Assembly: GCF_030684315.1 (NCBI RefSeq)
Contig: NC_081387.1
Coordinates: forward strand, 11,820,867 to 11,884,866
Reading direction: 5' to 3'
Origin: Stegostoma tigrinum
Lineage: Eukaryota
Length of the DNA: 64,000 bases
Within the stretch, counting starts at the first letter, position 1. Every line of letters starts with the position of its first letter. A program made the translations under genes and the position numbers. Positions 11,539 to 57,779 of the stretch are shown here, one piece after another. Below the pieces are notes generated by a model, which searched no databases, was not told where the DNA came from, and was given only the letters and a program-made list of their open reading frames with translations.

Positions 11539-11581
11539 ATGAACCCAAGCCCGATCCTCTGGATATTGGCTGTCTTCTTGG
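11539..11581 (+). CDS. NCR3: Gene 1 (NKp30/NCR3-like) leader exon: MNPSPILWILAVFL(G)
   Basis: Acceptor cccatcacag| at 11534/11535, ATG at 11539, hydrophobic signal peptide, phase-1 donor G|GTGAGT; in frame with the V exons. Confidence 0.85.
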
Positions 11582-13793: not shown

Positions 13794-14126
13794 GAATCGG
13801 TGCCAAGAAGTTCCAAGTTGTTCAGAAACTTCCAAGGATTCTGGCAGATGAGGGTCAATCCGTCCTCATCCCATGCGAGTGGACAGGCAATGTCTCCCTG
13901 ACAATAGGCTCTTTTAAATGGTTGAAGGATGGTGCGGAAGTTTCCAATCAGACAGCGAAGTACACAGGGCGAGTGCACAGACCCCAACAGGATTTCATCC
14001 ACAGCCGCAATGCTTCCCTCTTGCTGAAGGGGCTGAAAGTTACTGATTCTGGGATGTACAGATGCAGCGTGAAATTCATGCAGCTGGGTGAGGAATATGG
14101 GAATGGAACACAGCTCACAGTCAGAG
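13794..14126 (+). CDS. NCR3: Gene 1 IgV exon copy 1 (NKp30-like, germline-joined VJ-type domain)
   Basis: tttcag| ... AGAG|GTAAGC; 333 nt, phase 1-1, open: GIGAKKFQVVQKLPRILADEGQSVLIPCEWTGNVSLTIGSFKWLKDGAEVSNQTAKYTGRVHRPQQDFIHSRNASLLLKGLKVTDSGMYRCSVKFMQLGEEYGNGTQLTVR. Canonical C..W..DSGxYxC plus GxGTxLxV; motifs parallel human NKp30 as recalled (IGSVTWFRD, EVRNGTPEFRGR, LGVGTGNGTRLVV). Orthology not tested. Confidence 0.9.
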
Positions 14127-16572: not shown

Positions 16573-16905
16573 GAATCGGTGCCAAGAAGTTCCAAGTTGT
16601 TCAGAAACTTCCAAGGATTCTGGCAGATGAGGGTCAATCCGTCCTCATCCCATGCGAGTGGACAGGCAATGTCTCCCTGACAATAGGCTCTTTTAAATGG
16701 TTGATGGATGGTGCGGAAGTTTCCAATCAGACAGCGAAGTACACAGGGCGAGTGCACAGACCCCAACAGGATTTCATCCACAGCCGCAATGCTTCCCTCT
16801 TGCTGAAGGAGCTGAAAGTTACTGATTCTGGGATGTACAGATGCAGCATGAAATTCATGCAGCTGGGTGAGGAATATGGGAATGGAACACAGCTCACAGT
16901 CAGAG
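16573..16905 (+). CDS. NCR3: Gene 1 IgV exon copy 2
   Basis: Same splice sites, 333 nt, open; differs from copy 1 at WL(K>M)DG, LK(G>E)LK and CS(V>M)K. Confidence 0.88.
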
Positions 16906-19350: not shown

Positions 19351-19683
19351 GAATCGGTGCCAAGAAGTTCCAAGTTTTTCAGAAACTTCCAAGGATTCTG
19401 GCAGATGAGGGTCAATCCGTCCTCATCCCATGCGAGTGGACAGGCAATGTCTCCCTGACAATAGGCTCTTTTAAATGGTTGAAGGATGGTGCGGAAGTTT
19501 CCAATCAGACAGCGAAGTACACAGGGCGAGTGCACAGACCCCAACAGGATTTCATCCACAGCCGCAATGCTTCCCTCTTGCTGAAGGAGCTGAAGGTTAC
19601 TGATTCTGGGATGTACAGATGCAGCGTGAAATTCATGCAGCTGGGTGAGGAATATGGGAATGGAACACAGCTCACGGTCAGAG
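19351..19683 (+). CDS. NCR3: Gene 1 IgV exon copy 3
   Basis: Same splice sites, 333 nt, open; differs from copy 1 at QV(V>F)Q, LK(G>E)LK and two synonymous sites. Confidence 0.9.
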
Positions 19684-20054
19684 GTAAGCGATTCACTTGT
19701 CTGCAAATAGCCATGTGTGACAGCAGGAATCAGCTCCACAGCACAACTGGGTAACTTTTCCCAAGTCCTTCCACTGACGGGGTTCTATTCAGTTCGAGCA
19801 CTCTCCCAGTAACACAATCATAGAAAAGTACAATCTTGCACAGCTAAGAGGTGCCTTTGGTTTGTTTGTTTGGACCAAGTCAAACTCCAGTGATGGTTTT
19901 CTTCATGTACAGAACCAGACATCTTTAGTGACTTTTTCTGTACATTTTCAATGAATAAAGTGTATTTTTAAAGTTTGAAATATTTATAAAGTCAATAACG
20001 TGTAAACTATTCATGGAAATTGCTACTATTGTGCCTTCAGTATTAAATTCTGTG

Positions 20055-20272
20055 TGCAGTTTGCACATTCTCCCCGTGTCTGCATGGGTTTCCTCCCACA
20101 GCCCAAAGATGTGTAGGCTAGGGTGTATTGGCCATGCTCAGTCGCCCTGTCGTGTTCAGGAATGTGCAGGTTAATTTGGTTAGCCATGAGAACTTCAGAG
20201 TCACAGGGACGGGTCTGGGTGGGATGCCCTTCCGATGGGCTGAATGGCCTGCTTCCACACTGTCGGGATTCC
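20055..20272 (+). mobile_element. HE1-like SINE (5'-truncated); continues past the point where the copies in units 1 and 2 are cut
   Basis: gtttgcacattctccccgtgtctgc...cccacagcccaaagatgtgtaggctagggtgtattggccatgct...ggcctgcttccacactgtcgggatt. Confidence 0.8.
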
Positions 20273-21673: not shown

Positions 21674-21787
21674 TGAAACCAAAAAGTAGCACTACGCTAT
21701 GGTTATTCCTGTTGATTGGTGGCTTGATAGAACTAGCTCTCCTGTTAATTGCTGTGTTCTACTATGTGAAGTTACACAGAGCAAAAG
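21674..21787 (+). CDS. NCR3: Gene 1 stalk + transmembrane exon: (V)KPKSSTT-LWLFLLIGGLIELALLLIAVFYYV-KLHRAK
   Basis: Acceptor ttttgtgtcttag|, donor AAG|GTAAGG, 114 nt, phase 1-1; 24-residue hydrophobic helix followed by basic stop-transfer residues; Glu codon at 21730-21732. Confidence 0.85.
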
Positions 21788-25510: not shown

Positions 25511-25529
25511 GTGCTCAACCGGCTCAAAG
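25511..25529 (+). CDS. Gene 1 cytoplasmic mini-exon: (G)AQPAQ
   Basis: Strong acceptor tttgttttag|, donor AAG|GTGAGG; phase 1 to phase 2, matching the TM exon. Confidence 0.65.
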
Positions 25530-25639
25530 GTGAGGTACACATTTACTGGTTAACAAATGCACTCTGTTAGCGTTTGAAGTGATTGAAATATTTGTGGACA
25601 GTTTAGCAGTAAATTTTATTGCATGCAGATTGTCTGCAG

Positions 25640-25700
25640 CCCATTTTCTGCAAGGATACAGGAGCCTGAAACAGTCATCAGAGTTGAGACAGAGCTCCTG
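25640..25700 (+). CDS. Possible gene 1 cytoplasmic exon: (S)PFSARIQEPETVIRVETELL
   Basis: ttgtctgcag| ... CTG|GTAAAT, phase 2 to phase 0; inclusion would switch the next exon's frame and require a further exon at 26267. Ambiguous. Confidence 0.35.
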
Positions 25701-25899
25701 GTAAATACCCCTGAGATGCCCCCATCCGACAAAGTTAAAGGTCAAAGTTTGAGAAGTTATAGTCAAACAGGAAAATCAGCTTATCTCAACGGACATGATG
25801 GGTTGAACAGCCTTATCTCTACTTTAAATACATCCACATTTCTGTGGTCAAATGTTATCAGCAAATGTGGCTGAGTTCTTCCTTTTCATTGTTTTGCAG

Positions 25900-25937
25900 A
25901 CAAGTCCAAGTTGTTTCAGAGATATTCTGCGTAGATG
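25900..25937 (+). CDS. Gene 1 cytoplasmic mini-exon (QVQVVSEIFCVD or TSPSCFRDILRR depending on the upstream exon)
   Basis: Acceptor ttttcattgttttgcag|, donor ATG|GTACGT; two open frames. Confidence 0.55.
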
Positions 25938-27854
25938 GTACGTAAAGCTGGTTTTGGTTATATTTGAAAATAATATAAACTTCTATGGGGTTATTAAAAC
26001 CCTCAGGATTACCATGATACTGAGTTTAAAATGGTTGAAAGGTTTCCAGTTTGGCACCCGAATTATGATTCAGAAAAAAAATCCCTAAACGTTACAGTTT
26101 TCTTAACTCATTTAATACCTTCTTATAATTGTTTCCACTTCCACAAAGTACTTATCTCTCAGTCAATGGCATCTGATTTAATCAAAGGCAGCACTTTATT
26201 TTCACTCTTCCATTGAACAGAAATCAGATCTTTAGAGATAATCACAATTTTCTGCCTTTTTTTTAGTCATGGTGTCCACTTACGCAAGTTAGAGGAAAGT
26301 AAAGTTCTGTGGCAGAAACAGTATACAATTGCAGGAATGTGGATATGAATATTCTGGAAAAAAAGAATACACTTTGTCACATTTCTCTTGTACCCATTAG
26401 GACAATTCACTAATGTAAATATGAAAGTAAATGGAAAACATATTGTATATCATAGTATTGTATGAGAGAAAATGCTAATTGGTTGGCAAATTGCCTCTGA
26501 CTACAGACGTGTTGAGATGTAGGATGAACTAGTTCTGGACGACTGACAGTTAACTGCCAAACTTTCATCAAATATTCAACTAGGCAGCTTGACCCTGATT
26601 GATCAGAGCATTGCCCAACTGATAATCCTAAATTGGTTATCAGTGTAACTCTTCACGAATCAGTATTATGTAGCAAATGTTTTCCAATCACAGTATCACC
26701 GTAATGTTGGACGCTGCATCGTGAGGTTTGCAAATGCAGATTAGTTGAATACCTTTCTTGTTTCACTGAGTTGGAGGGATATTCAGTGTCATAAGATTCT
26801 AGAGGGCTACAGGGATAGTGCCGGAGAGTAGGACTAACTGGGTAGCTTTTCTGGGGGCCAGTACAGGCATGATAACTTGAATGGCTTCCTTCTATAAGGT
26901 AATATTCTGTGATTCTATGATTCTAAGTTTGCCATTCATTGGGAGAAATGGCTAACTTTCCTAGCATCGGACCAACAATGAAATTCACATGCCACATTAA
27001 TTAGCTGTGTGATAGGCAGAATGCCTTTTCAGCTTGGCAGGAAAAATGAAACCGATGTGCTTGCTATGACTGAAATTAATGATGTGGTATATGCCTGTCA
27101 ATACCTGTGCGAGGCTCGACAAGTAAGCCATATGTTCATTAGACAAAGACCAAATATCATATAAAATGACATATCCTTACAGTCATTTGCCACAAGCAGG
27201 TGCTGACTATGTGCAACCAGCCCATGTAGGCAGAATGCCAACCAAACATTAGATGTGAAACCTGTGATTAAACAACATTTTCAAAATAATCTTTGGGGGT
27301 ATGCAACACATGAACTTTCAATAAAATATGATTCTCTTCAGCTATAACTACATTAAGTATTTGACAATGGACATTAATAAAATTTAAGTAGTGAGAGAGT
27401 GGGGAGACTTGTGAAAGGGACAAGACAGACTCCATGGGCTGACACACTTTCTACTGAGCTGTATCAGCCTATTCTATGGTTCTATTCTAATTGTGACATG
27501 AATGTGAGAATACCTGAGATGCTCAACTGTTGGATACATTGGGGTTGAATTTGGATGTGAACAGAGCTACAGGACATGCTGGAAATTGTATTTCACTGAC
27601 TGTTACACCAGCTGATGAACGTACACTCCAAACAAAGATAAGATTGAACATTGACCAGGGGAGTATCCCACAGAACTGGGTGAAAGATAGCTTTACCTCT
27701 CAGACAATAGCACTGTTTGTTGATTTTTATTGAGGGGTAAGATTATTTAGGGTATAGAGCCAATGTTCCGAATATTCTTGCTGGTTTTCACAATTGGCTG
27801 TTTAGGGTAAAGATGCAACTATTTCAGTGGAATTTCTCAAAATGCATAGTTTGA

Positions 27855-28380
27855 GTCATAGTGTCGTACAGCACAGAAACAGACCCTTCAGTCCAACCAG
27901 CCCATGCTGACCATAATCCCAAACTAAACTAGTTAATAGGCCCATATCCCTTTTTCCTAATATTTCCTAATCATGTGCTTATCTCACCACTTCCCCTGGA
28001 AGTTCGTTCCACACACGGACCACTCTCTGTGTCGAACAAAAATGCCCTTCGTATCTTTTTTAAATATTTCCCCTCTCACTCTAAAAATATGTCCTCTTGT
28101 CTTTAAATCCCACACCTGAGGGAAAACACACCTGCCAGTCACCTTGTCTGTACCTCATGGTTTTATGAACCTCTATAAGTTCACTGCTCAACCTCCAGTG
28201 AAAAAAAAGTCCCAGCCTATCCAGCCTCTCCTTAGAGTGCAAACCCTCCATTCCTGGTAACTTGCTGGCAAATCTCTTCTGAATCCTCTCTAGCTTAATA
28301 ACATCCTTCCTATCATAGGCTGACCAGAACTGAACACAGTACTCCGGAAGAGTTCTCACCAGCACCCTGTAAAACCTCAA
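27855..28380 (-). mobile_element. CR1 LINE 3' fragment
   Basis: YRVLVRTLPEYCVQFWSAYDRKDVIKLERIQKRF on the minus strand. Confidence 0.85.
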
Positions 28381-28889
28381 ATGGATGCTGCATCTTTTAA
28401 AAGACAGTCAGTATGCATTTCATACAATTTATGAGTTGCAGTGAGCTTATGCTTTTACCGTAACGTAAGGAAGCAACAGTATCAACGTTGCAAAACTATT
28501 ACTGGCCCTGGGGACTTATCAATTTATACATTACAGTGCCCTACAGACAACAACTGTGAGTGTTAATATCAACATTGGTTCATGCTGGACTTACTTATGG
28601 GAATATTGTTGAACAGTACAATGCAAGGGTACCCTGCTCTTCTTTGAAAGATGCCAGGAAATTTTACTGACAGTGAAATGGTTTCTGTTTAATTGAATGA
28701 AGAATGTCTGACAATGCGGCCTCAGTTCCAGACAGAAATAAAACGCCATTTTTCTGTTCTCCAATGGTAGATTATCACTTGAATCCAGATGTTTCACTAT
28801 TTAGTGTTGCAAACTAAGCACAACTGGAAGCATTAAACAATCTTAAGGACATACTTATGCAGTAGTATCTTATTTTTATTCATATTTAA

Positions 28890-29170
28890 GGTGGCTCAGT
28901 GTTTAGCACTGCCGCCTCACAGTGCCAGGGACCCGGACTCCATTCCACCCTCGGGCGACTGTCTGTGCGGAGTTTGCACATTCTCCCTGTGTCTACATGG
29001 GTTTCCTCCCAGTGCTCTGGGTTCCTCCCACAGTCCAAAGATGTGCAGATGAGGTGGATTGGCCATGCTAAATTGCCTGTAGTGTTCAGGGGTGTGTGGA
29101 TTAGATGGGTCTGGGTGGGATTCTCTCAGAGTTGGTGTGGAGTTGTTGGGCCAGTGGGCCAGTATCCACA
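28890..29170 (+). mobile_element. HE1-like SINE
   Basis: gtggctcagtgtttagcactgccgcctcacagtgccagggacccgg...gagtttgcacattctccc...cccacagtccaaagatgtgcag. Confidence 0.85.
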
Positions 29171-29432
29171 CAGTAACAATACCACAACTATAAGAAACTC
29201 TTTCCATAAAAGTGCTTATAATGCAACATTTCTAACAATTCCAGCAGATACCTTCCATTATGGAGCCATAGGGTCATACAGCACAGAAACAGACCCTTCA
29301 ATCTGATCAATCCATGCCGAACATAATCCCAAACTAAACTAGTCTAACCTGCCTGCTCCCAGCCCATATCCCCCAAAACGTTTGCCATTCATCTATGTTC
29401 TATATTTGTATTCTCGTGCTTTTGTCTTTTAG

Positions 29433-29473
29433 ATATTCTAACTTTACCTGTCATGGATGAAGTGCAGAATCTG
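29433..29473 (+). CDS. Gene 1 cytoplasmic mini-exon: xILTLPVMDEVQNL
   Basis: Acceptor ttttgtcttttag|, donor CTG|GTAAGT; phase 1 to phase 0. Confidence 0.7.
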
Positions 29474-31189
29474 GTAAGTAACCTAATAGGAAGACAATCA
29501 CTGCACTTGAAATCTACATTTGCACATTAGGACTGAAACAAAGTATACCCAAGTCCCCAGATACAAAATCAAGCACAAGGTTGCAGAAATACCTAGACTG
29601 TTCCTGAAAATGATTGCCGTTAAAGAGCAGAAGGAGATTTTGTTAAAAATAACTGGGAGGCTGACACTGGTCACTATTATATGCAATGTCTGATGCCTCA
29701 ATTCAAAGTATAGTTAATAATTTGCTGTCAGACCTCCCACATTTCTCCATTGGCTCTGATATTAATGTCTCATCACTGGGATCAATGCACCACATTGAAC
29801 TTGGGATAACTGATGTTTAGTTTCCAGTATATTGATGGCAGATAACAATTAAAGCCGATGCATTGAGAAGTAAGTGACCTCTGCATCAAAAAACACTGAC
29901 CAACAACTGTATTGCTTCTGAAGAACTTTACAAGTATGAAGTCTCACTTCTGAAGCAGGTAATGAGTTTGGAAATATCATCGTATATGTACTCAGAGCAT
30001 ATGTACATGTTTTAATACTAACTGTATTTCACAATCTTATTTCACTTTCTGTTCTTGATTTAAATCCAGTTAATACACTATGCTTTATCTATTACAGTTT
30101 GCATTCTGGAATTACAAGTGGCAGCGTTAATTGCTGGTAGCCAGCAGATAATATTCAGTTCCATTGTTGTCAACAGGATTAAACATCAAGTACAGAAGTC
30201 AATTTCACACCATCTGCTTTACTGCCATTTGTTAGGATAACTTTCATCCCTATGCGAGTCAAAGTGGATTGTTCAATTGGATAGTTCCTGGTCTTGCTAG
30301 ATATGTTAGACTACCAATAGATAGCACTCAGCTTAAAATTAATTTAAAACTTCTCTGCAGACTAAAGTCTGTAAAACAAATTTGTATACAACTGTAGGTG
30401 AGACAATGAATGATCACCATTAATCAACTGTAAAACTCAGACATTACATTATGCATCAATACAACTGCTACCAAATAACCATAAGGAATATGATCATCTT
30501 TCACTTCTAATTGTTCACGGAGAAAACATATTATTTCAATGTTTTACCAGAAGGAAGTTGTAACACCCATCCATTGGCAAACAATGGGAAGAGTATGGTT
30601 GAATCTTATTTGGAGACAGTGCCAAAGGTTCTTAGAATCTCCAATAACAATCGAGTGATTGTTTAATCTGTGGTGAGGATTACCTTAAACATCTACATTT
30701 CACTGATCCCTACTAGTTAAATTGTACATTTTAACATCAATACCCTTGATATTCTGACTCCTTCCAGTCATATGAAGACATTTACTTTGTGCAGGAGAAA
30801 ATTTGCCTCTCTGGACCCAAAATGACATGAAATTTCTGCATGTTTATTAACAACAATATCAAAACAGTGAGCTGTTCTAGCATGTTGGTGACATGGGAAA
30901 CATGCCATTGAGATTCTTTGGGTCCAAGTATGTTGATGATGTCATAAGCATGGGAGCTAAAGGGATTTTCTTACTCTGTTCTCACAATGTGTTAAACATA
31001 GTTGGGATATTTCTTTTTTACCAGTGATTACTTAAAACACAGTGAGAGGAATTTCATGCCCAATTTTACCACATTTATTTTAGGGTGGCCACATTTGAAG
31101 CATTCATTAGTGCAATACCAGCTCTATTCAGTTATGTTTAAGCTGCAGTAAAGCACAATGTCAACTGGAGTACATACACACATGCAGGT

Positions 31190-31512
31190 AGCATGGGCAC
31201 TCAATGGTTAACACAGCTGCTTCATATCCAGGCAGGGACCTGGCTTTAATTTGGGCAACAGTCTGTTTTGCATTAGTGTATTCTGCCTGTGTCTGTGTGG
31301 GTTTCCTTCCGCAGTCCAAAGATGTGCAGGTTAAGTGGATTGGTCACGCTAAATTGCCCATAGTATCCATGGATGTGTTGATTAGGTGAATTAGCCACAG
31401 AAAATGCAGAGTTATAGAGTAGGGGGTTGAATCTGGGTGGGATAGGATGCTGTTTGGATGGCCAGTTCAGATTTGATAGGCGGAATGGCCTGCTTCTGCA
31501 CTGTGGGGATTC
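31190..31512 (+). mobile_element. HE1-like SINE (diverged)
   Basis: gtgtctgtgtgggtttccttccgcagtccaaagatgtgcaggttaagtggattggtcacgctaaattgccc. Confidence 0.75.
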
Positions 31513-31655
31513 TATGTATAACTTTAACTCCAACAGTAGAGAATAATGTTTTTTTTTCTGTGACAGTTCATAGATGTATGATCATGTCAGTGCATTAAAA
31601 TGTCTTGGTCTATAAAAATGTCCATTTCATTTGGTAATGTTTTATCTTATAACAG

Positions 31656-31697
31656 GATCAAGACGAGAGTGAACTGGAATCTGACACACTGTGCATG
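31656..31697 (+). CDS. Gene 1 cytoplasmic mini-exon: DQDESELESDTLCM
   Basis: tttatcttataacag| ... ATG|GTATGG; 42 nt, phase 0-0. Confidence 0.65.
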
Positions 31698-31784
31698 GTA
31701 TGGAAGTATTCCACTTTGTTCAATTATGTTACCCTTCATTGAAAGCAGAGTAATCATTAACAGAGTTTAATTTGTGTTCCAAAG

Positions 31785-31828
31785 GTTGAAAACAATGAAG
31801 ACACATCGATTTACACACCTATGGAAAG
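31785..31828 (+). CDS. Gene 1 cytoplasmic mini-exon with YxxM: VENNEDTSIYTPME
   Basis: tttgtgttccaaag| ... AAG|GTGAAT; phase 0 to phase 2; acidic residues before YTPM (31812-31823). Confidence 0.65.
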
Positions 31829-33745
31829 GTGAATCCTAATTCTTCCATTGCAACAGTTACAGTTACAGACCGTAGCTATTTGTCTTCCAGTATTGCCTGT
31901 GGAAAGCATAGTAGTCAGCTGAGGCATGTTATAAAGCTAGCATAGTGTGTTTATGGACGGCATTGAGCTCAACAATGTACAAATGTATGGGCTTTCCAGG
32001 GTTTCCCCCAACAGCTGAACTTTAGGTCTACTAGAGAAGAGCAGGATTCCCTGTTACATTTCATGGGTAATCTATTGGATACGCTGGAAACTGATTAAAA
32101 AAAACACAACCTTGCATCATTCTGTTACAACAAAGTAAGCCTTGGCGATTATCGAGAGACACTTGGTTGTGCTTTCCGAATTCAAATGTGGTCAACGACA
32201 TTAAAACATCAGGTAACCATAAGGAACATGATCTTCTTTCACTTTTCATTTTTTCACAGAGAAACCGTAATATTTCAATTTTGCACTAGTGGAAAGTCAC
32301 AACACATGCCCATTGCTGAAAAATAGGAAGTATATGGTTTAATCCTGCCACAAGGATTCCCAGAGCACTCCAGCAACAAACAGTATTTTCAGCAAGCCTT
32401 CCCCGCTCCCCCCACCCCCCCAACAATGTGCAAAAGCAGCTGGTGGACCGGACTGTGGAGCGAGGTCTGCTCAGGCACTTATTTCAAAGACGTGGTCCCA
32501 AGCGTTACTAAGTGGAGCATGAAATCATCACTGCACATCAATTTAGCCTCTTTAGGACACTTGGGCTTTAAAGCTCACAAACCAGGAGGGAGAAGATCAG
32601 CAGTTCATTCTGCATTCCATCAGCTTTTCTTCCCAGTCAATTCAATGCTGTCCTGGAATCGCTCCTCTGGTGATTCCCAGCAAGTTGACTTTCACCCCAG
32701 CTATTTTACTCCATACAATTTGTTTCATTTTCACCCACATCCCTCTCTGTATTTGACTGCTTCTTGTTGGGTTTCATACGAAGTTACGTTCATGTAAAAG
32801 TGCTAATGACAGAGCAGGAGCTAATTTCAACCGAAAGCTAGATGAGCAGAAGAGCTGGTGGAATCCCAGTTTTATGTTGTAAGCTGCATCACCTGACACT
32901 AGGGAGTTATATCAGGTGCAATGCAAAACAAATGGAGGAAATGACCTACTATTTGGGATGTTGAGGGGATTGGTGCAGGTAGAGATTTAGGGAGAAGCAA
33001 ATTTTACTCCACATGACATTGGCTGGACATTAATATTGAGTAGGATACAAAACTGGCATTCCCTCTGAACCTCTGGCCTTCTGTCAGTGGGGAAGGTGAC
33101 AATTTCTCCCAGTGCCTCTGAAGGCATCTTGCTGGCATAGAGTCGTACAGCATGGAAACAGTCCCTTTGATCCGACTATAGTCCTCGCTGACCATATTCC
33201 AAAATTAAACCAGTCCCATTTGTCTGCGTTTGGCCCACATCCCTCCAAACCTTTCTCCAAACATTGTTGTAAATGTCCCTGTATCTACCACTGATTCTGG
33301 CAGTTTATTCTACACATGAATGACACAGTGTTTAAAAAAAAATTGGCCCCAGTCATTAGTATAAATGTGAGGTGTTCTTTAGGATTTCAATCTTTTGTCA
33401 TTGTTCACCATACAGGATAGTGTTGTAGGTCAAGGATAAATTCTTCAGAAGTGTTCTACTAGCATCATGATGGGGATGGGGGAGGTACAGTTACTAGGAA
33501 GTGGCCTAGAGGGGATTAGGCCTCAGCAGTGATGGTCCAGATTAATTTGCCCATTTACTCAGTTTGTCCACTTTAATAAGAAGCCAGCTGTACAAATATT
33601 CAAGCCTCAGCTGCTCCAGCGGAGTGTCACAACATGCCTCAGCTAGTTGATTAAAAGTATCTATAAAAGAAAGGTTGAAACACACGTGATTGATTGCATT
33701 GTCTGTAAGAAGAAAATAGTATTATCTTTTGTTGGTTTCTGACAG

Positions 33746-33783
33746 TGTAAAGACCTTCAGCAACTCAACAGCGACTGAGATGG
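33746..33783 (+). CDS. Gene 1 cytoplasmic mini-exon: (S)VKTFSNSTATEM, GC donor
   Basis: ttggtttctgacag| ... ATGG|GCAAGT; phase 2 to phase 1, bridging the neighbouring exons. Confidence 0.5.
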
Positions 33784-33903
33784 GCAAGTACCTCAATTCA
33801 TTTAAATGTTTAAAAGAGCTGGTGAGAAATTAGAAGTACATCTTTTGTGGACTAACATAACCCACTTAAACCTTGCTTTTAATTTCTTACCATCTATCGG
33901 GAG

Positions 33904-33953
33904 ATCTTCTGGAAATAGATACCTTTCATGGCTTTTCAAGTGACAATGATATG
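33904..33953 (+). CDS. Gene 1 cytoplasmic mini-exon: (D)LLEIDTFHGFSSDNDM (in-frame alternative acceptor at 33919)
   Basis: Strong donor ATG|GTAAGG; phase 1 to phase 0; acceptor uncertain. Confidence 0.5.
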
Positions 33954-34249
33954 GTAAGGTTTTGCTCTGGTGTCATGACAGTGCATTCATTTAACACCTT
34001 TCAAGCTCAGAATGATTTACAGCCAATGAGGGACTTGTGAAGTGTAGTCATTGATGCAGTGTAAAACAGACAGATTTGTATAAGGCAGTGTCCCATAGGA
34101 AGTAATTGATAATGATAAAGTCTAATGTCACTTGTTCAGGAAAGCACATCAGTCAAACCACTAGAGTGAACTCTCCTGCTGTTCTTCAAAATTATGTCAT
34201 GGGATTTCTTTGAATTTGATTTAATATTGTCACGTGTGCTGAGATACGA

Positions 34250-34788
34250 TGGCTTCCTCCACATCGGGGAAACTAAGCAGAGGCATAGAGGCTGCCTTGT
34301 GGAACACCTATGCTCTGTTTATGACAAATGACAACACCCCCCAGTCACGAACCACTTCAACTCCCTCCTCCCACACCCTGGATGACATGCCCATCCTGGG
34401 CGTCTTCCAGTGACACAACGATGCCACCCGTAAAATGGAAGAACAGCACCTCATATTCTGCCTTGGAAGCCTACAGCCCAATGGTCTCAATGTGGTCTTT
34501 ACAAGCTTCAAAATCTCCCCACCCCCGACCTCATCCCAAGACCAGCCTCTCCTCTGATCCCCGCCTCATTGACCTGTCTGTCTTCTCTCCCACCTATCCA
34601 CTCCTCCCACCTCACTGACCAACCCCCATCACTACCTACCTGCTATCACGGCCCCCCGCTCTCTATTCATTTCAGAGCCTCCTTCGCCTCCACCATTTCT
34701 GAAGAAGGGTCCAGACGCGAAACGTCAGCTTTCCAGCTCTTCTGATGCTGCCTGGCCTGCTGTGTTCCTCCAGCTCCACACTGTTATT
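34250..34788 (+). mobile_element. Penelope-like element 3' fragment (GIY-YIG remnant plus hammerhead-bearing terminus) nested in a Rex-Babar 3' end
   Basis: HIGETK..EHL and HNDATRKMEEQHLIFCLGSLQPNGLN remnants; CTGAAGA-AGGGTCCAGACGC-GAAACGTC at 34699-34726. Confidence 0.75.
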
Positions 34789-34789
34789 A

Positions 34790-35280
34790 CAATGAAAAAT
34801 GGTGTCTTATGTGCTTTATATGTAGATGGTACTATACAAGTGCATCAGGGTAGCAGGACAGAGTGCATGTTATGGAGTTACAGCCACAGAGAAGGTGCAG
34901 ACAGAGATCAACATTAACATTTAAAAGGTCTATTCAAAAGTCTGATAACAAGGAAGACGTTGTTAATGAATCTGGTCAAATGTTTGTATCTTCTGAGATG
35001 GAAGAGAGTATAACCAGGATATGAGGGGTCTTTGATGATGGTTGCTTTCCTGAGACAGAGGGAAGTATAGGTGGAGTCAATGGATCGAAGGTTAGGCTTG
35101 TACGGTGGACTGGGCTGTGTTCACAACACTGTAGTTTCTTGTGGTGTTGGGAAGAGATATATCATGCTGCGATATATCCAAATCAGCCACTTTCTATGGT
35201 GCACCTGTAATATTTCTAAGAGTCTTAATGGACATGTGGAATCTCGTTAGGCTCCTGAGGAAGCTGAGTTGTTGTTGAGC
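34790..35280 (-). mobile_element. Rex1/Babar-like LINE 3' fragment (its tip lies at ~34210-34248, beyond the Penelope insert)
   Basis: Colinear similarity to the 37325-37845 copy (aagtgcatcagggt; gagatcaacatt; tgggctgtgttcacaac). Confidence 0.6.
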
Positions 35281-35524
35281 TTTTACATCCACTGTAATTT
35301 ACAAAATTCGGTAACACTCAGGTGACATTTCACAAGTCTGGGTTTGAGATTAGAGTGAAGCTTTTATGACTCAGTAGTTCTCCTGGGTGAATGCAGAAAG
35401 CAACTTGTTTCTACTATCTTTATGTGAATTAGTGATAGAGAGAGAAGAGTAAATTCTCCACAGTGCATGGCCTAAATATAGTATGTAGAATTGATTTGAA
35501 GTGCCTTAACACAATCTCTAGTGT

Positions 35525-35718
35525 AACAGAGACAACAAAGTGTGGAGCTGGATGAACACAGCAGGCCAAGCAGCATCTTAGGAGCACAAAAGCTGACATT
35601 TAGGCTCGAAACATCAGCTTTTGTTCTCCTGAGATCCTGCTTGGCCTGCTGCGTTCATCCAGCCTCACACTTTGTTATCTCAGATTCTCCAGCATCTGCA
35701 GTTCCTATTATCTCTGAT
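35525..35718. mobile_element. Short hairpin-shaped Penelope-terminus insertion with 14-bp TSD
   Basis: ACAATCTCTAGTGT at 35511-35524 and 35719-35732; internal inverted repeat gctggatgaacacagcaggccaagcag / ctgcttggcctgctgcgttcatccagc. Confidence 0.85.
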
Positions 35719-36019
35719 ACAATCTCTAGTGTGCTTGGTTCCTAACTGGAAATCACTCATGAATCACCACAAAACCATTTATCCCCTTCTCTGTTCTGAG
35801 AAACAGAAACATTACAATGAATTTGCTTCCTTGAGATTTACATTGGACCCACGCTACATCTAATATGGAACGTAAAAACAAATAGTGGCTTTCATTTGAC
35901 CAATGACAAAGGAATAAATTTTCAGAGTAACCATCTGTCTCAATATGCAATGGCGAATGAAAGATGCTACCTAGAAATTGTAACAACATGGTAGATGTAA
36001 CTTGGTAATTATTTTTATT

Positions 36020-36360
36020 CATCATTAGGATGACGACACTGTTGACTAGGCCAGCATTTATTGCCCATTCATAATTGCCTAAAGGGCAGTTATGAGTGAG
36101 CCATATTGGCTGTGGGTCTGGAGTCACATGTAGATGAGAGCAGGTAAGGCTGACAGTTTCCTTCCCTGAAGGACATTAGTGAACCAGGTGGGTTTTTCCT
36201 GACAGTTGACAATGGATTCATGGTCATCTACAGACTCTTAATTCCAGATATTCATTGAATTCAAATTCTACCATCTGCCATGGCGAAATTCAAACCCAGG
36301 TCCCCAGAACACTACCTGGGTCTCTGGATTAACAATCCCCCCATAATACCGCTAGGCCAT
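36020..36360 (-). mobile_element. Deu/SacSINE-type SINE
   Basis: ccagcatttattgcccat...gtgggtctggagtcacatgtag...ttccttccctgaaggacattagtgaaccag...; similar copy at 39950-40290. Confidence 0.7.
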
Positions 36361-37324
36361 CCTCTCTCTTCGGTATAAGACATAGCGAACACTAATCGTG
36401 TCTGTTTCACAGCTCTCTACTTGCTATTTTAAGTCATTGGCATTCATGATGCAAGCCAACTATTGCTTTTATTAAAAACATGATAGTTAAAAATTATATA
36501 AATATAGGTGTGTTCATTGGTATTAATCTCTTTTCCATCAGTTTGGCTCCATTACTGGCTTTCTTGCTTCTGAAGCAAGCTTTTGCAGAATTAAGTTTTA
36601 CTTCAAAAATTCCATAGATGATTGTGATTTATTGCAATTGTGTGGGGATGAGAGTATGCTAAGATGCAAGATGTTCCACCTCTCAAGATGTCCACTCTTC
36701 AGGCTAAACGTTGTAGGCATTTTGACAAACCTCATTCATTCCAGCATGTTGCTTTCATAAAAAAACACTGAGGCATCCAAATGCATATCAATGAGATGAA
36801 CTGGTCATTTATGTTACTTTACTGTTGTATCTGGAACTGTTATTTTTAAAGTAAACATTCATGACGATAATGATTTCACTCAATGCAATCACCATTATTT
36901 CTTATTCTGTCATGAGATGTGCATTGGAAATGGAATTTTTTTTTGCCCTATTCCTATTGCCCTTGGAGAGAGGTCAATTGAGAGTCAGCCACATTGCTGT
37001 GAGTCTGGAGCAAGATGTAAGTCAGACCAGATGATAAATGCGGATTTCATTCCTTCAACGGAAATACAACAAGTAGGATTTTTGCAAAACAATGAGATTG
37101 CTTCTTTCAATCCCAGATTCATTGTTTGAGCCACTTGAATACACGCCCAACTGAATGAATCTTGGAATGCTAGCTCACTGGTGCTGTTACCACATCTTAG
37201 CTAATGTGGTGAAGTGGGTGGGATAGCAATCAGATGACAATTTAGCACTCTGATAGCATTGCGTTAGAGTTCCAGTCTGGATTTGAGGGTTGAGGTGGAG
37301 CTTGACATCAGAAACTTTTGATTC

Positions 37325-37845
37325 GATTTAATTTGATTTATTGTTAACGTATCTACTGAGATGCAGTGGAAAGCCTTGTTTTGCGTGCTATGCAGGCAGA
37401 CTGTATAATACAAAGTGCATCAGGGTGCCAGAATAGAATGAATACAGTGTTACAGGTATAGGGAAGATGCAGAGAGAGAGAGATCAGAATCAACGTTTGA
37501 GAGGTCCTTTCAAAAGTCCGATAACAGCGGGGGGAAAGCTGTTCCTGAATCCGAGCGTACGTGTACAAAGTTTTAAATCTTCCACCCAACAGAAGTGGGG
37601 GCGAGGTGGGGAAGAGGGTATACTAGGGTGGGAGGGGTCTTTGTTTATGTTGGTTAGTTTCTCGAGGCAGGTGGAAGTTTAGATTGAGTCAAAGGAAGGA
37701 AGGCTGGTTTCTGTGATGGATTGGGCTGTGTTCACAACTCTGTAGTTTCTTGTCGTATTGGGAAGAGCAATTGTCACAACACACTGTGATGTATCCAGAT
37801 AGGATGCTTTCCACGGTACATCTATTAGAATTAGTCAGTGTCTTT
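37325..37845 (-). mobile_element. Rex1/Babar-like LINE 3' fragment
   Basis: Minus strand encodes TRTLGFRNSFPPAVIGLL, resembling the R(F)xNSFFPxAIRLL C-terminal motif of this clade. Confidence 0.65.
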
Positions 37846-38107
37846 GATTCACAGGTGACAGGGCATATCTCATTTGAGCAGCAATCAGCATTACACTGGA
37901 GGGGTTAGGTGGGGATAGCCACAGCAATTATCTCTATGGGAAGGGTTATGGCAATCCTGGAATGAATAGACTTTATAGAAATGTAAGGACAGGCTATTCT
38001 TGACTATTCTATCGTACAATTAGAAGGTAGTTCAATTGAATCCAGAACAAATTTGCTATTTTTTTCAATCTCTCTTCCAAACTCACGAACAAAGCATCAA
38101 TCAACCA

Positions 38108-39157
38108 CAGATAATGGGAACTGGAGATGCTGGAGAATCCAAGATAATAAAATGTGAGGCTGGATGAACACAGCAGGCCCAGCAGCATCTCAGGAGCACC
38201 AGAGCTGACGTTTGGGGCCTAGACCCTTCATCAGAGAGGGGGATGGGGTGAGGGTTCTGGAATAAATAGGGAGAGAGGGGGAGGCGGACCGAAGATGGAG
38301 AGAAAAGAAGATAGGTGGAGAGGTGAGTATAGGTGGGGAGGTAGGGAGGGGATAGGTCAGTCCAGGGAAGACGGACAGGTCAAGGAGGTGGGATGAGGTT
38401 AGTGGGTAGGAAATGGAGGTGCGGCTTGGGGTGGGAGGAAGGGATGGGTGAGAGGAAGAACAGGTTAGGGAGGCAGAGACAGGTTGGACTGGTTTTGGGA
38501 TGCAGTGGGTGGAGGGGAAGAGCTGGGCTGGTTGTGCGGTGCAGTGGGGGGAGGGGATGAACTGGGCTGGTTTTGGGATGCGGTGGGGGAAGGGGAGATT
38601 TCCACAATGATGCCACCCGAAGGTTGCAGGAACAGCAACTCATATTCCGCTTGGGAACCCAGCAGCCCAATGGTATCAATGGGGACTTCACCAGCTTCAA
38701 AATCTCTCCTTCCCCCACCGCATCCCAAAGCCAGCCCAGTTCGTCCCCTCCCCCCACTGCACCACACAACCAGCCCAGCTCTTCCCCTCCACCCACTGCA
38801 TCCCAAAACCAGTCCAACCTGTCTCTGCCTCCCTAACCTGTTCTTCCTCTCACCCATGCCTTCCTCCCACCCCAAGCCGCACCTCCATCTCCTACCTACT
38901 AACCTCATCCCACCTCCTTGACCTGTCCGTCTTCCCTGAACTGACCTATCCCCTCCCTAACTCCCCATCTATACTCTCCTCTCCACCTATCTTCTTTTCT
39001 CTCCATCTTCGGTCCGCCTCCCCCTCTCTCCCTATTTATTCCAGAACCCTCACCCCATCCCCCTCTCTGATGAAGGATCTAGGCCCGAAACGTCAGCTTT
39101 TGTGCTCCTGAGATGCTGCTGGGCCTGCTGTGTTCATCCAGCCTCACATTTTATTAC
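38108..39157. mobile_element. Palindromic Penelope-like insertion: two ~460-bp inverted arms around a GIY-YIG C-terminal remnant, 10-bp TSD
   Basis: Arms ~38144-38600 and ~38700-39156 are near-perfect reverse complements; spacer encodes HNDATRRLQEQQLIFRLGTQQPNGINGDFTSF; CAATCAACCA at 38098-38107 and 39158-39167. Confidence 0.9.
39067..39094 (+). ncRNA. Minimal type-I hammerhead ribozyme-like core (Penelope-associated)
   Basis: CTGATGA-aGGATCTAGGCCC-GAAA-CG-TC: CUGAUGA and GAAA boxes, short stem II with one mismatch, palindromic ACGT helix III, GUC cleavage triplet. Confidence 0.6.
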
Positions 39158-39236
39158 CAATCAACCAGTCTTTACTTTGCCTTTCTGGGTTGAACTCCAT
39201 TGACTCTTTCTTACACATTATATTTTGTTCTTGCAG

Positions 39237-39265
39237 ATTGCCAAATTCCTCCGCCCAAACTATGG
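39237..39265 (+). CDS. Gene 1 cytoplasmic mini-exon: IAKFLRPNY(G)
   Basis: ttttgttcttgcag| ... TGG|GTAAGC; phase 0 to phase 2, fitting both neighbours. Confidence 0.65.
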
Positions 39266-39624
39266 GTAAGCAGTAATCGAAAGTGCATAGTTTGTTGACA
39301 AATCATACAAAAATGTGATCTTTAGTTGCCATCATTTCACAGGCGTATCTGTGTCCATTGGTAAATATGTTATTTAATCCATGCTGTTCCTGATCGAACT
39401 GCCTTTCAAAATTGTAACCCGTAGGAACCCAAACAGTTGCATTTTTCACCAAATTTCAGATGAGATTTTCCACACATGTAAATTAGTGTGCAAATTGACT
39501 GGCTTTCATAAATCAACAGACTGAACGATTACAGAACATGACTGAAATGACATGAAAATAAAGAACTCAGCACACTTAGTTGAAAGATTATGAGAATGAG
39601 ACAAAATTAGAGTAGAACCACTCC

Positions 39625-39920
39625 AGTGCGGAAGCAAACCATTCAGCCCTTCAAAGCTACACTGACCCATGAAAGAACATCCACCCAGATCTCTAATTCT
39701 ACATTTCCCCATGGCTAACCTACACATCTCTGGACTGGCCAATTTAGCATGGAAAATACATCTAACCTGCACATCTTTCAGCTGCGGGAAGTAAGCGGGT
39801 CACCCGAAGAAAACACACACAGTTGTAAGAGACTGCACAGACTTCACACAGACAATTGCCAGACAGTAGGATTGAACCCAGATCCCTGGTACTGTCAGGT
39901 GCCAGTGCTAACCGCTGAAC
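39625..39920 (-). mobile_element. HE1-like SINE, immediately followed by a Deu-type SINE (~39950-40290, -)
   Basis: aacctgcacatcttt...ttgaacccagatccctggtactgtcaggtgccagtgctaaccgctga. Confidence 0.7.
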
Positions 39921-41284
39921 CAATCCTTAACTGGGCACTTTTTCCTCTTCTTTATTCATTCACAGGATGAGGGAATCACTGGCTAAGCCAACATTTATTG
40001 CCCATCCCTAATTGCCCAGAGGGCAGTGAAGAGTCAACCACATTGCTGTGGGTCTGGAGTCACACGTAGGCCAGGATGGCACTTTCTTTCCTAAAGAACA
40101 TTAGTGAACCAGATGGGTTTTTAACAACAATTGACAATGGATTCATGGTCATCCTTAGATTCTTAATTCTAGATATTTTATTGGATTCAATTTCCAGCAT
40201 CTGCCGTAGCAGGATTTGAACCAGAGCCCCCAGAACATTTCCTGGGTCTCTGGATGAACAGTCCAGTGATAATACCACTAGGCCATTGCCTCTCCTTCTA
40301 ATCTTAGTTGCATTTATGGCCATTACTCTCTCAAAATTGCTTACATTTGGCAACATTCCTTGCTTAACCTCAATTGAAAAGGCTGGTAACTTGTGCAAAT
40401 GTTATATAACCGAAGCATGCAGAGTATGTTCAATTTAGGCTAACTGAACATTTTGTTTAATTAGAGAGCTTCATCATTTGGTGTACAATACGCAACATTA
40501 GTGTTAGACAAGACATGCGGATCATCTTCTCTGAACATGATTGCAGAAGGCGATGATTTAGAGTGAGTCAAAAATTTCTCTCATTGAAACGACTCATATG
40601 TCATATTTGCCTTATTCACTTGAAACTGTAATGACTGGAGGGCTGCTTAAAAAAAAACTTTTATTCAGCACATCTACAGTGCTCCAACAATCACAGTTGG
40701 GGAGTTAACATTGTCACTCAATACATCATTGAAAAAACATTGTTCTAGATGCACACTTCCTTTCCAAAACCACTCTTGATGTAACTAGCCTCAGCCCATT
40801 AGTCAATATGATATACTGGAATCAGTTTATTTCTTGTTGACTACTGTCAATGAGTTCAATTCTTCCCAAATTCTGGCACACACATCAATTAGCCCACTGC
40901 TGAGCAATGCCTGGAAGGTGCTGGATGGATCTCTTGGATCCTGCCTCAGATCTGGTGATTTGACGAGTCGAGTTACATCTGGACTGCAACACCTTACATT
41001 CACCTTTAAATTAAGGCAAAGTTAGACTACCTTCTTAATATATTTTGAGGGGGTTTGGTCTCATCCATAACCAGAAGTAAAAATGAAGCTCTATTGAAAT
41101 AAAATGGGGCACAGTGGGTGGTTGGGGAGGCTGAAGATATTTGTTTTAGAACATATGCCTTGAGTTTCTGAGGCATTTTTGTTTAATTATGACTTTTTTG
41201 ATATTGACTATCTTCTCAGTGCTTTTTAATTCCTTGATGTGTATTTTATTCTCATGTTTGCAATCTCTTCCTCTCCTTTTGCAG

Positions 41285-41319
41285 GCATGATTATGGATAT
41301 GACGAGCTTAATGTAACAG
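41285..41319 (+). CDS. Gene 1 cytoplasmic mini-exon with GYxxL: HDYGYDELNVT
   Basis: Long pyrimidine tract ctcttcctctccttttgcag|, donor CAG|GTGACT; phase 2 to phase 1; YDEL at 41298-41309. Confidence 0.7.
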
Positions 41320-42926
41320 GTGACTAACAAGAAAGTATATATTTTGGGGAAGCTGGATGGTATACTATATCTTGCAACCTTTGTCTTGTGAATTTGAGGC
41401 AAGTAGTGATTAATCCAATAAGGCTTTGCTCCCACTGTTGCCCATTAAGTACCCCTTGGTTATTGGTGCAGGATATTGTTGTGAGTGAAGCAGACAGTTT
41501 CCTAGAACCAGTGGAGTGAAATGCTGACTGATTCGGTATTTCTGATAACTTCCCACAAAACGAGTTTCGATCCCATCTTCCCAGATCAGAAAATGACCTC
41601 TTAGTTGTTACAATTTGACCTTCCTTCCCTGTAGTACTCAGAGGGACATAAAGCAACAGGAGATTGAAGTGAAAGTGATGATTATGGAGAGACTTGTCTA
41701 AAGGCCCCTTTGCATCAACTAAAGCTGGTTACTGTTAGCATATAAATCAATACAGCCTATTTAGCTCCCTTTGAAATAGCTGCCCAGATGTAATGGTTTC
41801 TGTGGTACACATTGCATATTTTCCTGTTTACACTGAATATGGCGCTAAATGGAAGTGATCTATAACCTTGCAGCAGTGCTGATGTAGTTAAGCAACTTAA
41901 TCGACTATTCCATTTGAAGAATGCTCACAGTGAGCAACTTTGGAATTTAAATTGAGAATGTCTTCATCATTGATTTTAAAATTTGATGAAATAAGGATAC
42001 AGTTCTAAAAGATCATTTGAAAATACATGTTTCTTTTCTCACTGTGGAGAAATTTGAGATTCCCCATCAAAAGAATCCTTACAGTGCCATTTCCAAGTGA
42101 ACACTAATACGGGTCTCTTCAAATAAGGTGTATTTTAGGCATTTGTTTTACTCTGACTGATAGTGTAGGACTGAGAAGCTCAGTAATATTCCATTGTCTG
42201 GGGTATTTCAGAAGCACATTCTCTGGAGCAAGGCAGAATCACTAGAGCAGCAGCTCTGGGGTCCTCCACATTATTCCATACATGTACGGTCTCCAAAAGA
42301 TAATGCCAGTTTCAGTGAAATTATGACGATGGTAGTGAAGGCTAGCTGTGCCGATGTCACTTTCACTTCAAAACTTACAGAATTTACGTAATATCTCTTT
42401 GCGGAATTAAATTTGTTTTATAATGTGTTCAAGGTGAACAGGACCACTTTTTCATTAGCCATCGCTAGTAGTTCTGTAAAGCTAACTGTGGTATCAGTTC
42501 TGGTGGCGGAAGTACTTCCATCATTTTGCACAGTTAGTAATGTCAGGATTTTGATACAGTGCCCATAAAAACTCGGATATGTGCCGACAAAGGTAATCAG
42601 TCGCTTGGCATTTATGCCTTGAGGATCTTGCAGTTGCCACAGAGTGAAACAGCACAGAAGGAGGCTATTCAGGACACTGCACCTGTGTTAACACTGTCAA
42701 ACAGCGACCCAATTAATCCCATTTACCCGCAACTCGGCAGGAAAAGCTTTGATCAATTTAACTGCAAATGTTTAGAATAAAATTCCTGCCATGATCTTTA
42801 AAATTGGGTATGATATCAATGCAAGTTTTAGGGACTAAGGGTTGACACAGTTGTTCTGAGACTGTTTCCTTGCGGGAATGAGACATAAAACTATTTACTT
42901 GTACTTCTCTCTCATTTAATTCTCAG

Positions 42927-42967
42927 CAAAACGGTATCCTAAACCTGAAGGCATACCAAAGGACGAG
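42927..42967 (+). CDS. Gene 1 cytoplasmic mini-exon: (A)KRYPKPEGIPKDE
   Basis: ctctctcatttaattctcag| ... GAG|GTAAGA; phase 1 to phase 0. Confidence 0.7.
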
Positions 42968-43560
42968 GTAAGATAACAGTGACAGTACCCTTCGCTTGTG
43001 TGAGCAAGTTGGCATTTAATTCAACAAATATGAGCCAGTTCCAATTAAAGACTGGTGGCTAATTGCCATCTGCAGAAAGTGATAATTAATGGTTGGAAAG
43101 CACATGCAAGATGGCATTCATTTTAGGAGGGTTTTTGTTCTGATGGAGGAAGCTGAAAAGATGGATAAGGTCAACTGGAGTTCCTTATCCATTGTCCATT
43201 ATCCTTGAGCATTTATGCAATCCCTCCAAAGTGTGTTTTGATTATTGCGCTTAACAGAATTATTTATATTTAATATTATCTCATCAAATTGAACATTGGT
43301 CAATGCAGCAAACAAGGAATATTCTGAGCCATTGGAAAATAAAACTGAGGGAAGCAGACAGTCATTAAGATTGTGATTCTCACCTCTTTCACACCAAACA
43401 GCAAATTGTATCAGGCTTATTGTTTGCATTTGCAATTAAAGCAAACTATATGCACCCTGTGCTAACGTGAAATGCTGTAGGATGGGGCACTCGTGTGGTT
43501 TGCTTTAACTGGTGTTCAACTGTACTGCTTAACCATGGTTCCCCTTTATAATTTGTGCAG

Positions 43561-43608
43561 GAAAATGGAGAAAATCCTCAGGAGTGCACTGAAGTAGTGA
43601 ATAAATAG
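43561..43608 (+). CDS. Gene 1 probable terminal coding exon: ENGENPQECTEVVNK*
   Basis: cccctttataatttgtgcag|GAA, phase 0, TAG at 43606-43608; AATAAA at 43600-43605, another near 44583. Confidence 0.6.
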   Translation, partial: ENGENPQECTEVVNK

Positions 43609-46081: not shown

Positions 46082-46811
46082 TTTTTTTATTTGAAATAAT
46101 ATACTTTATTCATAGAATGTACAAAAAATAAAACATATTTATACACCTACCCAGTCATGCAAGCCGCTCCGGGTTACCCAGGGGGTACGTACACCAACTA
46201 AAAGTTTAAAAAAACAAAACAAAGAAAAAGCCTCAGCAGTTGTCTCCCCGCACAGTCCCTGTTGGCCCCCTGACCAGTTGGGAAGGCGCCAGCTGGGCCC
46301 AGTTACCAGATGGGGCCCTTTTTTCTATTCTGGACGAGGGGGTTCATACGGTGGTCTTTCCCCACCGCGCCTTGGAGGCGGCTGCCCCAAGCTTTAGCGC
46401 GTCCCTCAGCACGTAGTCCTGGACCTTGGAGTGTGCCAGTCTGCAACACTCGGTTGGGGTCAATTCTTTCAGCTGGCAGACCAGCAAGTTGCGGACAGAC
46501 CAAACAGCGTCTTTCACCGCATTGATGGTCCTCCAGGCGCAGTTGATGTTGGCCTCGGTGTGCGTCCTGGGCAACAGCCCGTAGAGCACAGAGTCCCGTG
46601 TCACGGAGCTGCTCGGGACGAACCTCGACAAATACCACTGCATCCCCCTCCAGACCTCCTGCGCATAGGCACACTCCAGAAGGAGGTAATCGACAGTCTC
46701 ATCCCCCCCGCAGCCACCTCGAGGGCAGCGTGCGGTGGCACAGAGATTCCGGGCCTGCATAGAGGATCTCACTGGCAGAGCACCTCTCACCACCAGCCAA
46801 GCAATGTGGGA
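46082..46811 (-). mobile_element. 5'-truncated L1/Tx1-clade LINE, apparently young, with 12-bp TSD
   Basis: Open ORF2 C-terminus with zf-RVT-like AWLVVRGALPVRS..CPRGGCGGDETVDYLLLECAYAQEVW; AATAAA and A-tail on the minus strand; TTGTAAACTGCA at 46070-46081 and 46812-46823; GC-rich against AT-rich flanks. Confidence 0.9.
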
Positions 46812-55807: not shown

Positions 55808-55850
55808 ATGGGTTCCGGCGCTGCGTTCTGTATTCTTAGCCTTGGCTTTG
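55808..55850 (+). CDS. NCR3: Gene 2 (NKp30/NCR3-like) leader exon: MGSGAAFCILSLGF
   Basis: Acceptor ccattcgcacag| at 55799/55800, ATG at 55808, 14 codons + G as in gene 1, donor TTG|GTAAGG; candidate UTR exon at 55598-55675. Confidence 0.8.
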
Positions 55851-57455: not shown

Positions 57456-57779
57456 GTGAGCCTGCAATACGCTGCTAACTTGAACAATGAAGGAGCAAAA
57501 CTACAGAATTGAGGAATCTTTTAGTTCACATCTCCTGTCAGTTGTCAATCTTATAATAGTAAAGGTCCTACAGACACAACTTCGCAAGTTAAGGCATTAG
57601 AAAACCGGATATTACAAACGCTGAGATATACTCCGCTTACTTATCCCACTATATTTCTTGAATGATGTTCAATAACCCAATAGCTAGAATAATTATTTTG
57701 ATTATAACTTCGATTTAGAGGATGCAAGGAACATTGCACCAACAGCTGTAGATTAGGAAGTAGAAAAGGGGGAGAAGCT

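Follow-up and report, generated by a model that had tools for sequence, protein, structure and literature searches.

The shark NCR3 family is the subject of a 2021 publication by Kinlein et al. (Immunogenetics 73:333), in which eight divergent subtypes are said to have been reported. In Xenopus, the XMIV genes include members bearing an ITIM (immunoreceptor tyrosine-based inhibitory motif). Human NKp30 has one V domain, a transmembrane (TM) Arg through which it couples to CD3zeta/FcRgamma, and a short tail without signaling motifs, as described in PMC6514059. CD300f (IREM-1/CLM-1) is described in PMC7247439 as an IgV receptor whose long, dual-signaling tail combines ITIMs (SHP-1) with PI3K-binding motifs. 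Here we analyzed a window of 64,000 nucleotides from the zebra shark, Stegostoma tigrinum (NC_081387.1, positions 11,820,867 to 11,884,866; coordinates below are positions within this window, and all exons given lie on its forward strand). Judged by its sequence, the window holds a gene for a type I receptor of the NKp30/NCR3 family with three V domains, a TM segment without Arg or Lys, and a 163-residue cytoplasmic tail, one exon of which encodes a canonical ITIM.

The V domain is of the non-rearranging VJ type, is held in one exon as in human NKp30, and is closest to NKp30. The best solved-structure match of V exon 3 (19351..19683), a Pfam V-set domain, was human NKp30 (E 2e-12, with 34 PDB matches in all; E 9e-20 with the family profile), and the identification of the gene as an NKp30 relative in an earlier note on this DNA was thereby borne out. 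V exon 3 also matched 100% to XP_059495503.1 (P0003; the relatives compared are database gene models, designated here by P numbers), which is annotated as an uncharacterized protein of S. tigrinum. Membership in the CD28/CTLA4/ICOS group, which is marked by a proline-rich ligand motif in the FG loop, was considered and rejected: the V FG loop has no Pro, and no CD28-family chain was among the 34 PDB matches.

Exon chain of the tail

The corrected tail is encoded by 11 coding exons (473 nt) spread over 18,098 bp (25511-43608). Ten of these measure 19 to 48 nt and one 98 nt; other receptor tails, for example that of PECAM-1, are likewise split over many small exons. The encoded residues are predominantly acidic in charge (32 acidic, 13 basic). 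Downstream of the TM exon (21674..21787), the chain opens with exons of 19 nt (25511..25529, phase 1 to 2), 38 nt (25900..25937, phase 2 to 1), 41 nt (29433..29473, phase 1 to 0) and 42 nt (31656..31697, phase 0 to 0), the last of which has no counterpart in several related models. These are followed by the 44-nt exon with the YxxM site, here Y-x-P-M (31785..31828, phase 0 to 2), and a 38-nt exon with a GC donor (33746..33783, phase 2 to 1). Tail exons 7 (39237..39265, 29 nt, phase 1 to 0) and 8 (40465..40562, 98 nt, phase 0 to 2) form the middle section. The chain closes with a 35-nt exon encoding a distal acidic Y-[D/E]-E-L site (41285..41319, phase 2 to 1), a 41-nt exon (42927..42967, phase 1 to 0) and a last coding exon (43561..43608) that ends at a TAG stop. 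The first polyA-like hexamers 3' of the stop are at 44566 and 44583. Carcharodon has a longer C-terminus, and a tblastn search with it 3' of 43608 gave weak scattered matches and no further exons.

An 11-exon tail had been proposed earlier, and all of its pieces are present at 25511-43608. The ten internal pieces are bounded by AG acceptors and GT donors, apart from the GC donor at 33783; the last piece ends in the stop, and the chain joins the TM exon in frame. Nine of the pieces hold as read, and the middle was wrong. The proposed exon at 33904-33953 finds no support in homology or in P0003, the frame assigned to 39237-39265 (phase 0 to 2) has to be replaced by phase 1 to 0, which matches P0003, and the 98-nt exon at 40465-40562 had been missed. 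With these changes, the TM segment and tail are identical to P0003.

Splice signals alone could not have settled the chain. With an approximate weight matrix, 15 open pseudo-exons scored at least 6 bits at both ends within 21800-43700, of which 6 were among the candidate exons. As the other 9 of these 15 lie outside the exon set, homology is needed to settle the chain; splice scores and phase consistency are insufficient to separate real exons from pseudo-exons. The middle section was therefore compared with each of seven related tails, and each alignment score was set against those of 500 shuffles. The originally proposed middle (33904-33953 followed by 39237-39265 in phase 0 to 2) was reached by 145 to 317 of 500 shuffles for six of the tails; for the seventh, the figure was 20 of 500. 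The corrected middle (39237-39265 in phase 1 to 0, then 40465-40562) was reached by none of the 500 shuffles in six of the seven tails and by 10 of 500 against the ray tail. A third option, 33904-33953 joined to 40465-40562, was also not reached by any shuffle in all seven tails, a result carried by the ITIM exon, and it scored lower than the corrected model in five of the seven. Taken alone, 39237-39265 in its corrected frame was significant against Chiloscyllium (0/500) and not against the other six tails (39 to 248 of 500), while neither its other frame nor 33904-33953 was significant alone against the related tails.

Among the acceptors of the set, 33904 (GAG) ranks lowest, reaching the 60th percentile of AG sites in the region; that of the ITIM exon is also modest (82nd percentile). 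At 33953 there is a strong donor (99th percentile). We regard 33904-33953 as a minor alternative exon at most. When it is exchanged for 39237-39265, the product is still in frame and the ITIM is retained.

For the interval 39170-43750, contigs were available from four DNA runs, which represent at most two samples of one study and possibly include the source of the assembly itself. No difference was listed in them for the five exons of this interval. These contigs are continuous and genomic, and no exon-to-exon joint over 39170-43750 was among the joints listed.

The intron at 31698-31784 is 87 nt long, in frame, and interrupted by two stops in the zebra shark; part of the homologous sequence is read as coding in Chiloscyllium punctatum P0006 and P0014.

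Tyrosine motifs and their conservation

The peptide VQYATL, encoded by the exon at 40465-40562, is a canonical ITIM according to the consensus S/I/V/LxYxxI/V/L given in PMC8631942. As had been claimed before, YxxM and GYxxL are in frame and lie on separate exons. Conservation was assessed in 13 gene models, one per gene, with C. punctatum represented by its longer model only; the set omits Heterodontus P0021, whose V domain falls in the same clade and whose tail is of an ITIM-only type. Nine of the 13 models, from eight shark and ray species including the zebra shark, combine YxxM and ITIM with the distal Y-[D/E]-E-L. The other eight of these models come from C. punctatum, Carcharodon, Cetorhinus, Scyliorhinus, Heterodontus (two paralogues) and the rays Mobula and Hypanus. 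Scyliorhinus P0015 has all three tail motifs and no TM segment, which may be an annotation gap or an exon-skipped form.

The spacing from the ITIM to the distal site is 28 to 30 residues in all nine three-motif models, and Ala occupies the position following the ITIM tyrosine (pY+1) in eight of them. The YxxM tyrosine is kept in 10 of the 13 models. When eight three-motif tails are aligned, 18 of the 104 columns show no variation, and these columns hold three of the five tail tyrosines (those of YxxM, the ITIM and the distal site). Motif conservation in relatives had been named beforehand as a check, and YxxM and the distal YxxL are indeed conserved across sharks and rays. A long tail assembled exon by exon, with these three kinds of site, is on this comparison the hallmark of the subfamily.

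The distal site had been labeled as resembling a hemITAM, or hemi-ITAM (ITAM, immunoreceptor tyrosine-based activation motif), described in PMC3819593 as DGYxxL with a triacidic lead-in. This label is only partly justified. Gly is found at position -1 in eight of the nine models, but Asp at -2 in just one, Mobula P0018, which has the exact DGYxxL; Hypanus has Tyr there. The zebra shark also has Tyr at -2 and therefore departs from the consensus. CLEC-2, Dectin-1, NKp65 and NKp80 share with the distal site a single YxxL, an acidic lead-in and Gly at -1, but they are type II lectins in which DGYxxL is N-terminal and comes with a triacidic run (PMC3819593), whereas the zebra shark protein is a type I member of the immunoglobulin superfamily that lacks these hemITAM receptor features.

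A second tyrosine lies two residues before the distal tyrosine in seven of the nine tails, with Asp in its place in Mobula; if phosphorylated, it could, speculatively, replace the acidic residue of the hemITAM. No tandem second ITIM or ITSM (immunoreceptor tyrosine-based switch motif) was found in the tail, as the distal site fits neither consensus. In PD-1/BTLA, two tyrosine motifs that serve tandem-SH2 phosphatases also stand at a fixed distance, with an ITIM-to-ITSM spacing of 25 residues (PMC8631942); unlike their ITSM, the second site of the zebra shark is an acidic YxxL, 28 to 30 residues away.

Predicted signaling and its alternatives

On balance, we lean towards a receptor that would be inhibitory by default and adaptor independent, with a PI3K arm, in the manner of CD300f. 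Expression of the full tail, phosphorylation of its tyrosines, its binding partners and the sign of the net signal are all inferred here. In such a receptor, clustering by ligand would lead kinases to phosphorylate the three conserved tyrosines. The phosphorylated ITIM would likely bind SHP-1 (PMC8631942 reports Ala at pY+1 to be optimal for this phosphatase), and YxxM, given as a PI3K-recruiting motif in PMC11599192, would likely recruit PI3K p85 as in CD300f. The distal Y-[D/E]-E-L could serve either as the second docking point of a tandem-SH2 phosphatase or as the place where a kinase of Src or Syk type docks. The ligand would be a B7-family (B7-H6-like) molecule, and the V repeats may add avidity. 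As the zebra shark TM segment has no basic residue and thus, unlike human NKp30, no Arg for coupling to CD3zeta/FcRgamma (PMC6514059), the receptor is likely not coupled to these adaptors, and the adaptor independence proposed in the earlier note is likely. Its purely costimulatory or activating reading is unsupported, as the overlooked exon contains the ITIM that is present in most of the compared models and mostly carries Ala at pY+1. CD300f would be the closest functional analogue, although it belongs to another V family, has Grb2 sites and binds lipids; we claim no likeness in tail sequence.

Several points weigh against an inhibitory receptor of this kind. The tail has a single canonical ITIM, two of its three motifs are of the activating type, and an acidic residue at pY+1 such as that of the distal site suits SHP SH2 domains poorly. 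The ITIM is missing in 4 of the 13 models: those of Rhincodon and C. plagiosum end early, and in the Heterodontus (P0011) and Mobula (P0172) paralogues both the ITIM segment and the first tyrosine are absent. The constant 28-to-30-residue spacing may merely reflect fixed exon sizes. The exon chain draws its support from gene models and homology only, and P0003, being identical to the window, is a second annotation and not independent DNA. As Glu111 of NKp30 is replaced by Lys and only 4 of 11 B7-H6 contact residues are identical in the V alignment to human NKp30, the ligand is uncertain. Finally, in one study the ITIM of NKp44 recruited none of SHP-1, SHP-2 or SHIP (PMC6514059).

The same exons could instead produce a net activating or costimulatory receptor, in which YxxM would engage PI3K, the distal YxxL would act as a hemITAM or like Y230 of CEACAM3 through Syk, Src kinases, Nck or Vav, and the ITIM would only limit the signal. 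This alternative is tentative and on the whole unlikely. It gains from the invariance of Tyr, Glu and Leu at the distal site, its acidic lead-in and usual Gly, and the exact DGYxxL of Mobula P0018; moreover, non-consensus hemITAMs such as that of NKp80 still signal (PMC3819593), and one of the CEACAM3 tyrosines is bound by Src kinases, PI3K, Nck and Vav (PMC7026191). However, the Mobula sequence is probably one derived change, given the Tyr of the other ray, and a triacidic run is absent from the distal site. PMC3819593 places its hemITAMs at the N-terminus of C-type lectins and a set distance away from the membrane, whereas the distal tyrosine lies 128 residues out here, and the ITIM bears the Ala that favors SHP-1. 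A tail that uses 33904-33953, lacks the ITIM and is purely activating, as first proposed, is very unlikely. Its chain is in frame and its 33953 donor strong, but 33904-33953 has the weakest acceptor and is absent from P0003, both middle peptides of this version are unlike the related tails, and replacing 39237-39265 by 33904-33953 gives a product that still contains the ITIM.

The TM exon encodes a hydrophobic core with one Glu, which might pair with a basic TM residue of a partner chain, such as an NCR3 paralogue with Arg or Lys, to which the receptor would lend its tail. Such Arg/Lys TM segments do exist among the family matches, and the Glu is shared by Carcharodon, Cetorhinus and two Heterodontus models. 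Rhincodon and Chiloscyllium, however, have Gln, His or Asn in its place, and the Mobula TM segment was found to contain no charged residue; we give this arrangement little credence. It is likewise very unlikely that gene prediction produced most of the distal tail and that transcripts end soon after the TM or YxxM exon. Rhincodon P0005 does end just after YxxM and C. plagiosum P0007 before it, and P0010 and P0012 are short isoforms, but conservation centered on the motifs, with variable sequence between them, in both sharks and rays is hard to explain without translation.

We also considered, as an improbable extension, that the mini-exon tail is a splicing switchboard by which one NKp30-family gene could turn from an SHP-1 brake into an adaptor-free Syk/PI3K activator. 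The cassette 33746-33783, 39237-39265 and 40465-40562 comprises 165 nt between phase-2 borders; its computed skipping keeps the frame, removes the ITIM and forms an ITAM-like YxxM-x6-YxxL. Across the seven middle exons, 11 of 128 skip combinations retain the normal C-terminus, loss of this cassette being one of the 11. The join from the YxxM exon to the distal exon is present in the P0011 and P0172 models, which show the join but not an activating product because both have lost the first tyrosine; they are possibly attenuated or decoy partners. Precedents for such a switch come from families unrelated to NKp30. The tails of Botryllus FcoR3/FcoR4 swap ITIM and hemITAM by splicing (PMC12582321), and in the ITAM-like motif through which CEACAM3 signals, Met replaces one Leu/Ile (PMC7026191); the Met half is second there, unlike in the cassette-skipped zebra shark tail, where it is first. 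Exon 39237 is directly preceded by a 1-kb inverted repeat (90.7%) at 38145-39156, and a repeat of very high copy number at 39935-40393 stops a little short of the ITIM exon. Either repeat could affect cassette splicing.

V domains, neighboring features and family context

The 16-exon model (leader, three V, one TM and 11 tail exons) forms a single open frame of 542 amino acids. The leader exon (11539..11581) starts with ATG, is 43 nt long and ends in phase 1; it matches the N-terminus of XP_059495591.1 (P0019). V exon 1 (13794..14126) encodes an NKp30-like VJ-type Ig domain and has a second acceptor 6 nt upstream; V exon 2 (16573..16905) is a tandem copy. XP_059495591.1 covers the leader, V1 and the start of a second V, and XP_059495503.1 runs from the end of V2 onward. 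As the two parts sit in separate database models, one gene appears to have been split in RefSeq. About 2 kb 5' of the leader exon, a CpG-richer stretch (9200-9600) is a possible promoter or non-coding first exon.

The V exons lie one each in three tandem units of ~2.78 kb (12151-20100) that are 96.0 to 97.7% identical. An assembly artefact was rejected by inference, as the units differ by 2.3 to 4% and relatives have one to five V domains. Several B7-H6 contact residues are shared with human NKp30; of the NKp30 residues I50, S52, F85 and L86, which were mutated in a B7-H6 study (PMC3135353), three are identical and one is changed from Leu to Ile, with the numbering anchored by ourselves.

In a midpoint-rooted tree of 55 V domains, which did not contain mammalian NKp30 and in which seven rows were unnamed, the three V domains of the window group together (99/93), and their triplication is therefore taken to be recent. 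Separate V multiplications are seen in the zebra shark, in lamniform sharks and in Mobula. A single clade of 25 elasmobranch rows (97/93) takes in the V domains of the three-motif genes. This clade stands apart from nurse shark NCR3 QTT61898.1 and from a second gene of the window, and sits with nurse shark NCR3 in a wider, less firm group (93/91). The zebra shark gene very likely belongs to the shark NCR3 family, for which eight nurse shark entries are given in PMC12227049 (MT914154-161); QTT61898.1 is the one of the eight compared here. The family matches include tails that carry one or two ITIMs as well as TM segments containing Arg/Lys. Two ITIMs are found in Heterodontus P0067 and P0099, newt P0089 and bichir P0153. 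ITIM-bearing NKp30 relatives are accordingly not rare, ITIM tails being common among the shark NCR3-like matches, and an activating NKp30 orthologue, with a TM Arg and a short tail, is not what the zebra shark gene presents.

The second, divergent NCR3-like gene lies 13 kb downstream on the same strand, with a V exon at 57116-57454 and a TM exon at ~60211-60339 whose core has no charged residue. Its V exon is 58% identical to the two-ITIM Heterodontus P0099 and 73 to 76% to C. plagiosum P0032. The stretches 733-3800, 46303-46901, 52166-53007 and 59238-59864 contain what we take to be a low-complexity tandem array and open reading frame (ORF) fragments resembling remnants of LINE reverse transcriptase. 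No MHC marker was recognized in the ORF list of the 64-kb window. The letters of the window were inspected over 9001-48000 and 53001-64000, and exons were checked by their coordinates.

By title and opening lines, none of the papers found on shark or cold-blooded NCR3/NKp30 describes the tail, most subscription papers lying outside the search, and the excerpts of PMC10751288 and PMC10768021 give general context with nothing specific to the zebra shark tail. The subtype and its motifs may already be contained in Kinlein et al. 2021, Flajnik et al. 2012 or their supplements. No new mechanism is involved, as tails with ITIM and YxxM are known from CD300f and the shark NCR3 family has been published.

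The findings correct an annotation now divided between two RefSeq models and provide a concrete candidate for a checkpoint-like receptor in cartilaginous fish. NKp30 has been viewed as an adaptor-coupled activating receptor, yet in sharks and rays its V domain has long been joined to a self-contained tail. This tail combines one inhibitory site with two sites of activating type, and it exists alongside paralogues that have either two ITIMs or a basic residue in the TM segment. These observations suggest an early NKp30 system made up of paired receptors, a single activating member of which was retained in mammals.

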